In this document: positions 9,121-13,887 of the stretch, piece after piece
Layout: the number at the start of each line of letters is the position of its first letter
Numbering within the stretch: the first letter of the stretch is position 1
From: Candidatus Nealsonbacteria bacterium
Lineage (GTDB): Bacteria > Patescibacteriota > Minisyncoccia > Minisyncoccales > PWPS01
DNA length: 64,000 nt
NCBI GenBank assembly: GCA_003557645.1
Contig: PWNV01000011.1
Span: 13,640 to 77,639 of the forward strand
Direction of reading: 5' to 3'
Position numbers and translations under genes: made by a program
Notes under the pieces: generated by a model
Database searches by the model: none
What the model saw: only the letters and a program-made list of their open reading frames with translations
What the model was told of the DNA's origin: nothing

Positions 9121-11505
9121 ATGTATATTCCTGTATTTTGGATTATTATCCTAATAACCTTTTTTCTTGTTATTGCTTTACTGATTTTTTTGTCTAAAAA
9201 AAGCAGGTTAGAGAATATAAAGCGGAGCTTAGATATGTCTCTTTTTTTAGTAAAGCTTCCGCGATACGAAAGCCAGGAAAAGGAAAGGCAGATAGAGGAG
9301 AAAAAAATAATCTCAAAGATGGAGCAGATTTACTCTAATTTTCTTTCCTTGCGAAAGGGAGAGAGGGTTGCTCTAGAGATTGCCTCTGAGGTGGGTCAGG
9401 GTGATATTTCATTTTATATCGCTGTTCCTTCAAGTTATGAAAATGCTTTAAGTAAATACGTGCAAGGAGTTTACTCTGGAGCAGTTTTGGAAAAAGTTCC
9501 TGGAGATTACACGATTTTTGAACCCAAGGGAGAGGCTTCGGCTTCTTTTTTAAAAACAAAGAAAAGTTTTTTCTTCCCGATAAATACTTATGAAAACCTA
9601 GAGAAAGATCCACTAGAATCAATAGCGAATGCAGTAAGTAGTATTGAGCCAGGAGAGGGAGCCGCTGTGCAAATAATATTGAGACCATGCTCTTTTAGCT
9701 TGCGCGAGAAGGGAGAGAAGTTACTCAGTAAAATTATAAACGATAAAAGTAGTTTGGAAAAAGCAATTACAGAGGTTAATGCGGGGACTTTTGGTAAAAA
9801 TTTTCGTGATTTATCTACTGCGGTTACAAAGAAAGAAGGGGAGAAGAATAAAGAGCTGGAGGAGAGAAAGGTCGGAGATGATACTATTGAAGCAATAAGA
9901 GAAAAAATAAGAAAGCCTGGATTTGAAGTCAATATAAGGCTTATTGGCGTAGCAAAAAACAAGGATGATGCGGATAAAGTGCTTCACAGCTTAGAGAGCG
10001 GATTCTCCCAATTTTCTTCTTCTTGGAATGAGTTTAAGATGGTTAGAGCTAAGAAAAAGATGCTCAGACAGCTTATCTATAATTATAGTTTTCGTAATTA
10101 TCGTAAAGAAGAAACCAACATTCTAAATAATGCTGAGATTGTTAGTGTTTATCATCTTCCTTTGTCTCATATGGAGAGTCCGTATATAAAATGGGCGAAA
10201 ACAAAGGAAGCTCCACCTCCCTCAGAGCTTCCAAAAAGCGGACCACTGTATCTAGGGGGTGCGGTTTATCGAGGTGAAAAAAAAGATGTCTATATGTCTT
10301 CCAATGAAGATAGAATGAGACATTTCTATATGATAGGTCAAACAGGAACGGGTAAATCTAACTTCTTGCGACAAATGATTCGCCAGGACCTTGAAAGCGG
10401 AGAGGGTGTGGGAGTTATAGATCCGCACGGAGATCTTATTGAACACACCTTACTCAACATTCCCAAAGATCGCATAGATGACGTGGTCCTTTTTGAACCT
10501 TTTGACCGAGACAGGCCGTGTGGACTCAATATGCTTGAATGGGATCTTCCCGAGCAAAAAAGCTTTGCTATCAATGAAATGATAACTATTTTTGGGACTC
10601 TTTTTGATCCATCTATTATAGGCCCTATGTTCGAGTATTATATGCGAAACGCCATGGCAGCTTTAATGGCCGACAAAGAAGATCCGGGAACATTAGTTGA
10701 GATTCCAAGAATGTTTATTGATGAAGATTTTAGAGAAAGAAGGTTGCAAAAAAGTGCAGATCCTATGATTAGAGATTTTTGGCTTAAAGAGTGGAGACAG
10801 ACAACAGGACAAACGGCTTCGGATATGAGAGGTTATGTGGTGTCAAAGATAGGAAGATTTGTCCAAGATGAAATGATGAGGGGTATTATTGGACAGAGTA
10901 AATCGTCTTTTGATTTAAGTAAAATAATGAACGAAGGAAAGATATTTTTAGCAGATCTCTCCAAAGGAAAAACAGGGGAGCTTAATAGCAAGCTTTTAGG
11001 GCTTGTTCTTGTCTCAAAAATGCAAGTTGCTGCGATGCAAAGAGCTAGAATACCAGAAAAAGAAAGAAGGGATTTCTTTTTATACGTGGATGAATTCCAA
11101 AATTTTACAACTGAAAGCGTGGCAACTATACTTTCCGAAGCAAGGAAGTACAGATTAAGTTTAAATGTATCTCATCAATTTATGCCTCAGCTTTCCGAGA
11201 ATATCAGAAATGCGGTAGTAGGTAATGTTGGGACAATGGCTTCGTTTAGGGTTGGAGCTGATGATGCTCAGTTTTTGGAAAATCAGTACAGTCCGGAGTT
11301 TTCCAAGTTTGACCTTATGAATGTTGATAATTATCAGTATATTTTCAAAACAATAGTAAATGGAAAAGTAACAACCCCCTTTAAAGTACATGCGCCTCCG
11401 CCAACTCCAGGAGATCCAGAAATAGCAAGAAGAGCAAGAGAAGTGTCGAAATCAAAATATGGGAAACCAAGAATTATGGTAGAAAAAGAGATTATGGAGA
11501 GATAG
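9121..11505 (+). CDS. membrane-anchored P-loop ATPase, TraD/VirD4 (type IV coupling protein)/HerA-FtsK-like
   Basis: 794 aa. N-terminal TM helix followed by SKKSR, then about 370 aa of unassigned domain. Walker A GQTGTGKS, Walker B FFLYVDEFQNF, and a C-terminal SHQFMPQL...GNVGTMASFRVG region resembling TraG/TraD C-terminal modules. Confidence 0.7.
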   Translation: MYIPVFWIIILITFFLVIALLIFLSKKSRLENIKRSLDMSLFLVKLPRYESQEKERQIEEKKIISKMEQIYSNFLSLRKGERVALEIASEVGQGDISFYIAVPSSYENALSKYVQGVYSGAVLEKVPGDYTIFEPKGEASASFLKTKKSFFFPINTYENLEKDPLESIANAVSSIEPGEGAAVQIILRPCSFSLREKGEKLLSKIINDKSSLEKAITEVNAGTFGKNFRDLSTAVTKKEGEKNKELEERKVGDDTIEAIREKIRKPGFEVNIRLIGVAKNKDDADKVLHSLESGFSQFSSSWNEFKMVRAKKKMLRQLIYNYSFRNYRKEETNILNNAEIVSVYHLPLSHMESPYIKWAKTKEAPPPSELPKSGPLYLGGAVYRGEKKDVYMSSNEDRMRHFYMIGQTGTGKSNFLRQMIRQDLESGEGVGVIDPHGDLIEHTLLNIPKDRIDDVVLFEPFDRDRPCGLNMLEWDLPEQKSFAINEMITIFGTLFDPSIIGPMFEYYMRNAMAALMADKEDPGTLVEIPRMFIDEDFRERRLQKSADPMIRDFWLKEWRQTTGQTASDMRGYVVSKIGRFVQDEMMRGIIGQSKSSFDLSKIMNEGKIFLADLSKGKTGELNSKLLGLVLVSKMQVAAMQRARIPEKERRDFFLYVDEFQNFTTESVATILSEARKYRLSLNVSHQFMPQLSENIRNAVVGNVGTMASFRVGADDAQFLENQYSPEFSKFDLMNVDNYQYIFKTIVNGKVTTPFKVHAPPPTPGDPEIARRAREVSKSKYGKPRIMVEKEIMER

Positions 11506-11511
11506 AGGTTT

Positions 11512-11540
11512 TTGACTTTGTATTAGAAAAATTATAAACT
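11512..11540 (+). promoter_or_regulatory. candidate promoter of the LOG gene
   Basis: TTGACT (11512-11517), 17-nt spacer, TAAACT (11535-11540). Only 10 nt to the ATG at 11551. Confidence 0.3.
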
Positions 11541-11550
11541 TTTCAGCATT

Positions 11551-12261
11551 ATGAAAAATATAAAAGATTCATCACAAATCTTTGATAAAGATCCTGCCCT
11601 AGGGAAAGAGGACTTTCGAAAAACCTTTCAATGGAGAATTTTTCGAATTATGGCAGAGTTTGTGGAAGGGTTTCAGTTTGTGGCTGATCTTAAAAATCCG
11701 GTAGCTATTTTTGGTTCAAGTCGTTTTGATGAGCAGAATCCAGACTATGTAAAAGCGAGGACCCTTGGTAATCTTTTGGCAAAAGAAAACTTTTCAGTTG
11801 TCACTGGAGGGGGGCCGGGAATTATGGAAGCTGCCAACAGAGGAGCAGCGGAAAGCGGCGGGAAAGGAGAATCGATTGGAATAAATATTCAACTTGAAGA
11901 AGGAGAGAGAGCAAACGAATATATGGAACGGTCTATCAGTTTTTATTATTTCTTTACTAGAAAAGTAATGCTTTCATTTTCTTCTTCCGGATATGTGTTT
12001 TTTCCAGGAGGATTTGGAACGTTAGATGAATTTTTCGAAATAATGACACTTATTCAGACGAAGAAAATTCCAGGAGTATCTACAGTTGTCGTTGTGGGAA
12101 AGAGTTACTGGGAGCCTTTATTAAGCTGGGCGCAAGAAGAACTTTGTCAAAAATATGAAACTATCGATCAGAAGGATTTGGAGATGATTAATATTGTTGA
12201 TACACCGGAAGAAGCTTTAGATGTTATAAAAAAAGCGTTTGATTATAAAAATAATAATTAA
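11551..12261 (+). CDS. LOG-family nucleotide 5'-monophosphate nucleosidase (TIGR00730-type)
   Basis: 236 aa with GGGPGIMEAANRGA and PGGFGTLDEFFE motifs. Confidence 0.87.
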   Translation: MKNIKDSSQIFDKDPALGKEDFRKTFQWRIFRIMAEFVEGFQFVADLKNPVAIFGSSRFDEQNPDYVKARTLGNLLAKENFSVVTGGGPGIMEAANRGAAESGGKGESIGINIQLEEGERANEYMERSISFYYFFTRKVMLSFSSSGYVFFPGGFGTLDEFFEIMTLIQTKKIPGVSTVVVVGKSYWEPLLSWAQEELCQKYETIDQKDLEMINIVDTPEEALDVIKKAFDYKNNN

Positions 12262-12266
12262 TTAAA

Positions 12267-13331
12267 ATGAAAGATATAGAGTTCCCAGTTTTCAAAACAA
12301 AGGTAGAAAATGATCGCCATTTTAATCTTTCCGATCCCAAAGGAAGAGAAGAATACTTTGCTTTCAAGGCAGGAAGTGAGATTGAAAGAATTAGAAAGCA
12401 TCTTGAGCATAGTGCTTTTATTGTTTATCTTCTAGGAAAGAAAAGTGCAGGAAAAGGCACCTACTCCAAAATGCTCGCAGAGGTAATTGCTCCAGAGAAG
12501 ATCGAACACTTTTCTGTTGGAGACATGATAAGAGAAGTAGATAAAGATTTAAAAGATGAAACGAAACGAAAAGAATTAATTGCTTTTTTAGAGGAAAACT
12601 ATCGAGGATGGATATCTGTAGATGAGATTATAAATATTTTAGAAGGAAGGAGTACTGCAAAACTTCTTCCTACGGATGTTATTCTTGCACTTGTAAAAAG
12701 AGAGATTGCTAAGAGAGGAAGAAAAGTTATTTTTATTGATGGCTTCCCTCGTGACCTGGACCAAATTTCTTATTCACTGTTTTTCCGTGATCTTGTTGGG
12801 TATCGTGATGATGCAGATTTTTTTGCTCTTATCGACGTTGCCGAGCAAGTGATCGATGAGAGAGTAAAGTGGAGAAGGATTTGCCCTAAATGTAACACTT
12901 CTCGGAATTATAAGCTTTTACCAACTTCTAAAATTAAACATGAAGAAGGAGAGTTCTCCTTAATTTGTGATAATCCTGGTTGTGGTGAGGAGAAGATGGT
13001 AAGAAAAGAAGGCGATGAAGCCGGAATTGATCCGATTAGAGAAAGATTGGAGATGGACGAGTATCTTATAAAACAAGCTTTCAATCTTTACGGGATACCA
13101 AAAATTCTTCTTCGTAATTCTGTTCCTGCTGAAAAAGCGGAGGAGTATGTTTCCACTTATGAACTTACTCCCGAGTATAGCTACGAGTGGGATGAGGAAA
13201 AAGGAGAGGTAATAGTAAAGGAAACTCCGTGGACTATTAAAGATGATCGTGGTGTAGAAAGCTACAGCTTGCTTGCTCCCCCTGTTGTTGTCTCTTTTAT
13301 CAAGCAGCTTGCTGACTTACTAAAAGCTTGA
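12267..13331 (+). CDS. adenylate-kinase-family (NMP kinase) protein with Cys4 lid and N- and C-terminal extensions
   Basis: 354 aa. Divergent P-loop GKKSAGKGT, IDGFPRD, lid CPKCNTS...CDNPGCG. About 55 aa N-terminal and about 90 aa C-terminal extra sequence. Confidence 0.65.
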   Translation: MKDIEFPVFKTKVENDRHFNLSDPKGREEYFAFKAGSEIERIRKHLEHSAFIVYLLGKKSAGKGTYSKMLAEVIAPEKIEHFSVGDMIREVDKDLKDETKRKELIAFLEENYRGWISVDEIINILEGRSTAKLLPTDVILALVKREIAKRGRKVIFIDGFPRDLDQISYSLFFRDLVGYRDDADFFALIDVAEQVIDERVKWRRICPKCNTSRNYKLLPTSKIKHEEGEFSLICDNPGCGEEKMVRKEGDEAGIDPIRERLEMDEYLIKQAFNLYGIPKILLRNSVPAEKAEEYVSTYELTPEYSYEWDEEKGEVIVKETPWTIKDDRGVESYSLLAPPVVVSFIKQLADLLKA

Positions 13332-13355
13332 CTACCATAGAAAGAGAGATATACT
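13328..13355 (+). promoter_or_regulatory. candidate promoter of the ncRNA candidate
   Basis: TTGACT (13328-13333, overlapping the upstream stop codon), 16-nt spacer, TATACT (13350-13355). The predicted start is about 6-8 nt later, at the 5' strand of the closing helix. Confidence 0.45.
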
Positions 13356-13361
13356 TTAGAT

Positions 13362-13490
13362 ACCGTTCCGCCCACATTGAAATTCTGACATTGTTATTAT
13401 CAGGGAGCCGAAAATGATTCTCAGCTCGTGGGCTGAGACTGAGGCACCCACCTTAATTTTTATGCTCAGATCCTTCATAGGGCGGACGGT
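13362..13490 (+). ncRNA. candidate structured ncRNA (long irregular hairpin; SRP-RNA-like or 6S-like, identity unresolved)
   Basis: ORF-free 193-bp gap. ACCGTTCCGCCC (13362-13373) pairs with GGGCGGACGGT (13480-13490), giving 11 bp with one bulge. Internal helices: TCTGA-CAT/ATG-C-TCAGA, GGGAGCC/GGCACCC, and apical CTCAGC/GCTGAG. U-rich tail TTTGTTGC. Sits upstream of ybaB, where SRP RNA lies in some bacteria. Confidence 0.4.
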
Positions 13491-13524
13491 TTGTTGCTAA
13501 ATTTTAAAATAAATCAAATTATAT

Positions 13525-13776
13525 ATGCTTGACAAATTTAAACAGATGAATCAACTCCGCAATATTCAAAATGAGCTTGGAAAGGAAAAAGTAGAAGAAG
13601 AAAAGAGGGGAGTAAGGATTGTAATGAATGGAAAGATGCAAGTGGAGGAGGTTAGCATAAACCCAGATCTCGAAACTAAAGAGCAAGGAGAAGCCCTTAA
13701 AGAGTGCTTTAACAGCGTAACACAGAAAGTACAGATGATGGCTGCAAGGAAGATGCAAGAGATGGGAGCGCTATAA
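13525..13776 (+). CDS. YbaB/EbfC-family nucleoid-associated protein
   Basis: 83 aa. Pattern KQMNQLRNIQNEL...VRIVMNGKMQVEEVSINPDL matches the YbaB family layout. Confidence 0.7.
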   Translation: MLDKFKQMNQLRNIQNELGKEKVEEEKRGVRIVMNGKMQVEEVSINPDLETKEQGEALKECFNSVTQKVQMMAARKMQEMGAL

Positions 13777-13798
13777 AAAAAGCGACAGAAACGTCGCT
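13774..13798 (-). terminator. intrinsic terminator for the rpmB-tRNA-Pro transcript
   Basis: Minus strand: stem AGCGAC/GTCGCT with a 6-nt loop, followed by a T run (TTTTTTTAT). Overlaps the ybaB stop codon. Confidence 0.5.
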
Positions 13799-13813
13799 TA
13801 ATTGCTACTAAAT

Positions 13814-13887
13814 TCGGGCCGGCGGGATTTGAACCCACGATCTCACGCACCCCATGCGTGCGCCCTAAGCCTCTAGGCCACGGCCCG
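13814..13887 (-). tRNA. tRNA-Pro (anticodon GGG)
   Basis: Manual cloverleaf: acceptor CGGGCCG/CGGCCCG, anticodon stem CACGC/GCGTG, loop ATGGGGT, T-arm GTGGG-TTCAAAT-CCCGC. No encoded CCA. Confidence 0.9.

Follow-up and report, generated by a model that had tools for sequence, protein, structure and literature searches.

The locus described here raises a simple question: what is encoded in the 193-bp intergenic gap (13332-13524) between a gene of the adenylate-kinase (ADK) family and ybaB in Candidatus Nealsonbacteria? The gap lies in a 64-kb stretch of contig PWNV01000011.1 (positions 13,640 to 77,639), which at its full length is called the window in the following paragraphs and supplies the numbering. 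From the sequence alone, the original prediction had measured this gap correctly and had placed in it a self-contained hairpin RNA gene with its own promoter, specifying either a very divergent signal recognition particle (SRP) or 6S RNA, or something else. Our analysis leaves hardly any doubt that the gap does hold a real, independently transcribed, structured small RNA gene. We further consider it probable, with a lesser degree of assurance, that the RNA belongs to the 6S family as a miniaturised form, or else is structurally very close to it, and from this likeness we infer its function.

The plus strand between positions 13355 and 13500 folds into one continuous rod with a minimum free energy (MFE) of -49.5 kcal/mol (z = -4.7), and none of 200 shuffled sequences folded as well. 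Because the reverse strand folds about equally well, the choice of strand had to come from other evidence. From the ends inwards, the rod consists of a GC-rich closing helix (P1), a short UGAA/UUCA helix, a further helix (P2), a large central bubble, a helix with the strands GGGAGCC and GGCACCC (P3), an asymmetric internal loop and an apical hairpin (P4); the coordinates are collected in Table 1. The closing helix and the two interior helices, the UCUGA-type P2 and P3, had been proposed before and were reproduced by the MFE fold. The apical hairpin is present as well, with eight base pairs, but the loop of six nucleotides claimed for it proved to be a loop of four (CGUG). In the window the central internal loop has 11 nt in its 5′ strand and 12 nt in its 3′ strand; four weak A-U pairs that the MFE fold places inside it find no support in the family consensus.

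Relatives of the element were collected by way of the neighbouring ADK-like protein, homologues of which number in the thousands, all of them in Parcubacteria/Paceibacteria-type bacteria of the candidate phyla radiation (CPR). An alignment of 22 of these led to 80 genome loci, mostly labelled Candidatus Nealsonbacteria, with some Staskawiczbacteria, Wildermuthbacteria, Minisyncoccales and others. This sample was chosen on the ADK-like gene. With the window element as the only query, nhmmer gave matches in 48 loci at E<=10, of which 33 also passed E<=0.001; all of the matches share the strand of the ADK-like gene, and almost every one of them directly follows its 3′ end. Twenty-nine relatives fold singly into the same rod even though the sequence of the closing helix differs wholly between lineages. 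A plain MAFFT alignment misaligned this hypervariable helix and recovered only the helices of the apical half, for which reason a covariance model (R1) was built from 11 close relatives and then run on all loci. R1 matched 60 of the 80 loci at E<=3e-5, on the plus strand and 3′ of the ADK-like gene, and about 12 more at weaker scores. The median length of the RNA among these 60 members is 133 nt, with an apical arm of 47 nt and a bubble of 14 nt in the 5′ strand and 12 nt in the 3′ strand, which is variable in sequence and contains no consensus pairs.

The covariation asked for by the original prediction is plainly there. In the 60-sequence alignment, standard pairs fill 92.7% of the cells, as compared with 35-54% when the 3′ partners are slid by one to three columns. 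Both partners have changed in 35 of the 38 pairs, compensatory cells number 591, and 500 shuffles did not once attain any of these measures. Since the alignment was fitted to the model, the pairing figures are somewhat inflated; the conclusion that the structure is conserved is nevertheless safe, because the single-sequence folds are independent of the model and the margin is large. In P1 all 12 pairs change on both sides (91.9% of cells paired), and in P4 all eight do so (98.7%). Helix 5, which is P3, is paired in 100% of cells, with four pairs changed on both sides, and the inner helices of the closing arm (helices 2-4) are 83-88% paired, the model being one register off for some subtypes.

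The same alignment settles the strand. It contains 220 G-U or U-G cells and 44 A-C or C-A cells, an excess from which it follows that the plus strand is functional. The only open reading frame (ORF) inside the gap, a mechanical reading of 40 aa on the minus strand (13356-13478), was rejected: substitutions compensate one another pair by pair, and the surplus of G-U cells indicates a plus-strand RNA. R1 also scores the reverse complement at 18-36 bits in many loci, for example L004 (4111-4241, minus strand) and L007 (4108-4237, minus strand); these matches arise because the rod is nearly symmetrical, and they are not separate genes.

Two loci that R1 missed, L055 and L075, were left out when a broader covariance model (R2) was built, and R2 finds both at 56 bits (E ~1e-9). 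As R2 recognises these unseen copies, and as the similar L064 falls within the 60-member set, all of them belong to one family. They form part of a divergent subgroup (L055 4172-4317, L075 3381-3516; also L056, L030, L034, L064, L045 and L057), which has a different apical hairpin and is without the AUGAU of the asymmetric loop, and which keeps the bubble, GGGAG/CCCAC and both arms. The (N)AUGAU sequence is carried by about 40 of the 60 members, and in the first alignment, of 29 sequences, A58, A60, U61, G62 and A63 of this loop are invariant. One reading of AUGAU...CUGA, as a kink-turn of the box C/D type, was tried and abandoned. Tandem sheared G-A pairs would need a conserved GA on both strands, whereas CUGA stands in the 3′ strand of no more than 21 of 60 members, the others having CUUC, CUAA, CUUA or further variants, and the divergent subgroup has no AUGA at all. 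Because the GA of the 3′ strand is not conserved, the loop is not a kink-turn; it is a lineage-specific feature.

The RNA gene has its own transcription signals. The promoter TTGACT-16-TATACT (13328-13355), which had been noticed in the original prediction, was called by the promoter scan with 10 of 12 matches. The transcription start predicted from it, again in agreement with that prediction, would fall at about 13360-13362 (A), on the first base of the closing helix. In nearly every related locus, TTGACa is followed after about 17 nt by TAtAAT, which ends 5-8 nt before the start of the model and of the closing helix; a simple pattern finds such a near-consensus promoter in 51 of the 60. At the other end, a terminator or T-run follows the RNA in 57 of 60 loci, and the family uses two designs: a separate GC hairpin with a T-run in most loci, and a closing helix that runs straight into the T-run. 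The T-run lies 9-60 nt beyond the closing helix in 47 loci, mostly preceded, as judged by eye, by a separate GC-rich hairpin, and within 8 nt of it in ten. The window copy is of the second type. Its U-rich tail (UUUGUUG) is where it had been described; it is weak and was not called by the terminator scan. The closing helix probably also acts as an intrinsic terminator, though a weak one.

Can the RNA be identified? A scan of the whole window with Rfam at the gathering thresholds reported five tRNAs only, and neither a 6S nor an SRP RNA. Six regions of about 281-351 nt, each containing one copy, were then scanned under relaxed conditions (E<=10; E-values already corrected for 4227 families). 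Apart from tRNA, significant scores came from the 6S RNA family (RF00013) alone. They were obtained for three members of the divergent subgroup, while the match of the window copy has an E-value of 0.3 (Table 1). All four matches are full-length (model positions 1-187), are on the plus strand and span the rod exactly. The 6S model scores because the invariant bases at the edges of the bubble fall on the most conserved positions of the consensus: CUGA before the bubble, GGGAG after it and CCCACCU(GGA) on the return strand all correspond to upper-case positions of RF00013. More precisely, the CUGA of the P2 5′ strand aligns with the conserved CuGA of the 6S consensus. GGGAG, which does not vary among the 29 sequences of the first alignment and hardly does among the 60 members, matches its GGGag, and CCCAC, invariant among the 29, aligns to its CCCACCU. 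The score is lost through deletions in the apical and closing arms.

The architecture, too, matches that of 6S RNA. Canonical 6S RNA consists of an outer closing stem, a large central bulge that holds the start of the product RNA, and an apical stem (PMC8414754). The family described here is built in the same way and departs from this description in size only: its rod is closed by an outer stem, opens into a large central bubble and continues in an apical stem, which is interrupted by small internal loops and capped by a terminal loop. Truncated versions of Bacillus subtilis 6S-1 RNA of 78-82 nt, from which the -35-like region is missing, bind the sigma-A holoenzyme about 10-fold more weakly (PMC8876501). 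They still serve as template for product RNA and are still released (PMC8876501). Because such truncations work in vitro, a short 6S RNA is mechanistically credible.

Several results weigh against a 6S identity. Two of the six copies tested (L054 and L017) gave no 6S match at E<=10, and the gathering threshold of RF00013, 46.4 bits, is well above the scores of the window copy (16.3 bits) and of the best relative (31.5 bits); none of 20 relatives scanned reaches it. In the other direction, R2 gives no match to E. coli ssrS at E<=10. Typical 6S RNA exceeds this RNA by about 50 nt, and the apical arm of 47 nt stands against 73 model positions, so that the -35-like contact may be reduced or different. 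Refolding after product-RNA synthesis, by a hairpin between the 3′ strand of the bubble and that of P2 or by a helix that collapses the bubble, is no more than suggested, with a longest stem of 4.47 bp on average compared with 3.79 bp in shuffled sequences. A UUGGA/UCCAG register is consistent in many members, and the stem reaches 7 bp in L064, L045 and L057; nothing of the kind was found in the window copy. As the searches covered the window, the retrieved loci and 20 kb of the closest relative, further copies or a canonical 6S RNA may lie elsewhere in these genomes. In that relative (L001 4033-4110; L081 10001-11328, contig PUMP01000054.1), no copy of the RNA was found either at the corresponding site or within the 20 kb. 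The divergent subgroup is the one with the top 6S scores (22-31 bits) and the best alternative hairpin in the 3′ strand of the bubble (up to 7 bp).

Table 1. Features of the small RNA gene and its flanks, with the matches to the Rfam 6S model
Feature	Position	Strand	Basis and remarks
ADK-like ORF	12267-13331	+	354 aa; adenylate-kinase family, Pfam ADK/AAA_17
-35 hexamer TTGACT	13328-13333	+	promoter scan; overlaps ADK-like stop codon TGA (13329-13331)
-10 hexamer TATACT	13350-13355	+	promoter scan; 16-nt spacer
Small RNA	13360-13493	+	134 nt as delimited by covariance model; R1 match 112.4 bits
P1 5′ strand, closing helix, ACCGU-U-CCGCCC	13362-13373	+	MFE fold; pairs with 13480-13490
UGAA/UUCA helix	13378-13381 with 13474-13477	+	MFE fold, covariation
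P2, UCUGACAU / AUG-C-UCAGA	13384-13391 with 13462-13470	+	MFE fold, covariation
Central bubble, 5′ strand UGUUAUUAUCA	13392-13402	+	U-rich, variable in sequence, unpaired in family consensus
P3 5′ strand GGGAGCC (GGG-A-GCC)	13403-13409	+	pairs with GGC-A-CCC
Asymmetric internal loop, 5′ side GAAAAUGAU	13410-13418	+	carries subfamily-specific conserved AUGA(U); faces CUGA
P4 apical hairpin	13419-13438	+	8 bp (13419-13426 with 13431-13438), loop CGUG
Asymmetric loop, 3′ side CUGA, and P3 3′ strand GGCACCC	13439-13449	+	MFE fold, covariation
Central bubble, 3′ strand ACCUUAAUUUUU	13450-13461	+	first bases AC(C/U)U conserved
P1 3′ strand GGGCGGACGGU	13480-13490	+	MFE fold, covariation
U-rich tail UUUGUUGCUAAAUUUU	13490-13506	+	UUUGUUG follows closing helix
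ybaB (YbaB/EbfC)	13525-13776	+	83 aa
RF00013 match, window copy	13357-13496	+	16.3 bits, E 0.3
RF00013 match, L075		+	22.4 bits, E 0.0086
RF00013 match, L064		+	25.6 bits, E 0.0015
RF00013 match, L055		+	31.5 bits, E 5.7e-5

Other explanations of the element have to be set beside these data. It might be a cis-acting structure, that is a leader or attenuator of ybaB, or a structured 3′ untranslated region or terminator of the ADK-like gene. Its constant place just 3′ of the ADK-like gene would agree with this, in a sample that was selected on that gene; so would the promoter and terminator scans, which in the window called neither a strong terminator after the RNA nor a promoter of ybaB's own. 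The ybaB gene may therefore be read through from the promoter of the RNA, and probably is. Across the family, however, ybaB is the first downstream ORF in only six of 60 loci and the second in five; in the other loci unrelated ORFs come next, or else a convergent tRNA and an M50 peptidase gene. The tie to ybaB drawn in the original prediction is thus not supported; in most loci a terminator separates the RNA from what follows, and a hairpin and T-run of its own are found downstream in the 47 loci mentioned above. Nor does the arrangement resemble the ffs-dnaX-ybaB order of Bacillus to which it had been likened, the upstream gene being of the adenylate-kinase family and not dnaX. On the other side, genes intervene between the ADK-like gene and the RNA in L054, L044, L069 and L068. 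Together with the conserved near-consensus promoter, from which transcription would start at the first base of the closing helix, and with a fold for which no anti-terminator alternative is evident, this makes a cis-acting role quite improbable. Still less can be said for a palindromic mobile or repeat element, such as a miniature inverted-repeat transposable element or a repetitive extragenic palindrome. In its favour there is a clear-cut difference between the window, which has the RNA, and the closest relative (L001, ADK-like protein 83% identical), which has none between the corresponding genes and in which ybaB begins about 11-13 nt after the ADK-like stop codon; the near-symmetrical rod, moreover, is weakly scored by the model on the reverse strand too. 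What the clean absence indicates is that the RNA gene is a discrete unit which can be lost or moved. Copies of a repeat would be near-identical, whereas here whole helices have been replaced by compensatory substitution; the window, like each of the loci, has a single copy, its position is fixed across species in which the neighbouring protein is only 60-80% identical, and the G-U asymmetry shows selection at the level of RNA. We regard this explanation as extremely improbable.

The same low standing is given to a very divergent small SRP RNA of the 4.5S type (RF00169). Such an RNA is also a single long hairpin of similar size with paired 5′ and 3′ ends, and the 64-kb window yielded no SRP RNA. 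SRP RNA has nothing, however, that corresponds to the large central bubble, and the window copy lacks the symmetric and the asymmetric loops of domain IV. Its apical loop reads CGUG instead of GNRA, which bears out the failure of the original prediction to find a domain IV motif. At E<=10 no SRP model matched in any of the six regional scans, as against four matches for 6S; of the two families originally suggested, 6S is the one that fits. The most serious competitor is a new, Parcubacteria-specific class of structured RNA that has converged on the shape of 6S RNA and serves another partner, for example a protein which recognises the AUGAU/C loop together with the CGUG loop. It would account for 6S scores that all remain under the gathering threshold, for the failure of R2 to recognise E. 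coli 6S, and for the tight linkage to an unusual ADK-like gene. Moreover, the most invariant bases of the main subfamily, apart from GGGAG/CCCAC, sit in the apical asymmetric loop, which has no 6S counterpart. Against it, the divergent subgroup does without AUGAU, keeps the bubble, GGGAG/CCCAC and both arms, and scores best against 6S; what is conserved throughout the family is exactly the part that is common to 6S; and the best of the E-values (5.7e-5 after correction for 4227 families) is hard to put down to chance. A new class is therefore unlikely in our estimation, and kinship with 6S RNA the preferable conclusion.

If the RNA is compared with characterised members of the 6S family (ssrS of E. 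coli; 6S-1 and 6S-2 of B. subtilis), the likenesses are the rod of closing stem, large central bubble and apical stem, the G-C pairs with CUGA, GGGAG and CCCACCU(GGA) at the edges of the bubble, and a strong promoter of the housekeeping type. It differs in its length of about 133 nt, where these have about 185-200 nt and 6S RNAs at large typically about 160-200 nt, and in the AUGAU/C asymmetric loop and CGUG loop that its main subfamily conserves. A further difference is that 6S RNA is processed from a longer transcript, whereas the window RNA is predicted to be a primary transcript that extends from the closing helix to its own terminator. The engineered minimal 6S-1 RNAs (6S78 and 6S82cp; PMC8876501) share with it a central bubble between short arms. 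These are artificial, 78-82 nt long and about 10-fold weaker in binding, while the window RNA is natural and longer, and retains the full closing arm and an apical arm equivalent to 20 bp. The Ms1 RNA of Actinobacteria is about 300 nt long and binds the core enzyme, not the holoenzyme. One report (PMC9130861) describes Ms1 as a rod of the 6S type that the 6S model fails to recognise and that interacts with RNA polymerase; the relaxed scan of the window copy gave no Rfam match to a family of the Ms1 type.

A mechanism can be proposed by analogy with 6S RNA, in which polymerase binding, the template role, product-RNA synthesis and the physiological role are all inferred. The stand-alone RNA of about 133 nt, predicted to be abundantly transcribed, would fold into the rod, the two helical arms of which would keep the central bubble open over some 11-14 nt per strand. 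The bubble would mimic an open promoter; the apical arm (GGGAGCC/GGCACCC and hairpin) would take the role of the upstream DNA, and the closing arm (UCUGA.../...UCAGA and the GC-rich terminal helix) that of the downstream DNA. RNA polymerase carrying the primary sigma factor would then bind the RNA in place of DNA promoters and be sequestered. When nucleotides are plentiful, the polymerase would use the 5′ strand of the bubble together with the helix next to it (about 13378-13395) as template for a short antisense product RNA, starting for instance with 5′-(A/G)UGUCAGAAUUU. Its synthesis would unzip the closing arm and so free the enzyme. One may go further and imagine a natural minimal 6S RNA whose short arm is without the canonical -35-like contact for sigma region 4, which has the AUGAU/C and CGUG module in its place, and which is tied to the ADK-like kinase. 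This is speculative, and we would give it only a small chance of being correct.

The neighbourhood of the gene has some features of its own. The ADK-like protein, at 354 aa, is unusually long, with extended N- and C-termini, and is highly conserved across Parcubacteria; its invariant cysteines C206, C209, C234 and C239 suggest a zinc-binding lid. Its gene nearly always directly precedes the RNA gene, and its stop codon is overlapped by the -35 box of the latter. A functional tie between nucleotide supply and a 6S-type RNA is conceivable. Further upstream, the order of genes is kept between the window (9121-12261, plus strand) and the closest relative (L081 6861-9995), with a DUF87/TrwB-like ATPase (794 aa) followed by a LOG/SLOG "lysine decarboxylase-like" protein (236 aa). 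Downstream of the RNA, a tRNA-Pro(GGG) gene (13814-13887, minus strand) is followed in its own direction by a terminator-like hairpin (13780-13799, minus strand), which comes right after the ybaB stop codon; the hairpin probably is a bidirectional terminator for the convergent ybaB and tRNA genes. Several relatives, too, have a convergent tRNA after the RNA gene. An M50 peptidase gene and the ribosomal cluster rpsL-rpsG-fusA also lie downstream.

Nearly all bacteria are held to possess 6S RNA. Within the literature that could be searched we found no paper that links it with CPR bacteria, Patescibacteria or Parcubacteria, a single co-occurrence of the terms being irrelevant, and none of relevance on a named motif. 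The compact RNA described here was previously unannotated and is missed by the Rfam thresholds, the 46.4-bit cut-off being such that these genomes would be left without a 6S annotation. With the alignment and the covariance model, annotation of 6S RNA could be widened to cover Parcubacteria, and the 133-nt RNA and its product RNAs, sought in metatranscriptomes, would offer a handle on growth-phase control in uncultured organisms. Should the lineage-specific AUGAU/C and CGUG module act as suggested, it would mean another grip on RNA polymerase in ultra-small CPR bacteria, or an extra protein partner; a tie to the ADK-like kinase, if real, would couple nucleotide supply to the release of polymerase. 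If the RNA is indeed of the 6S family, a global regulator of RNA polymerase would have been retained by ultra-small bacteria that depend on a host and have genomes of about 0.5-0.6 Mb, in a form some 30% shorter than usual, a natural counterpart to the engineered minimal 6S RNAs.

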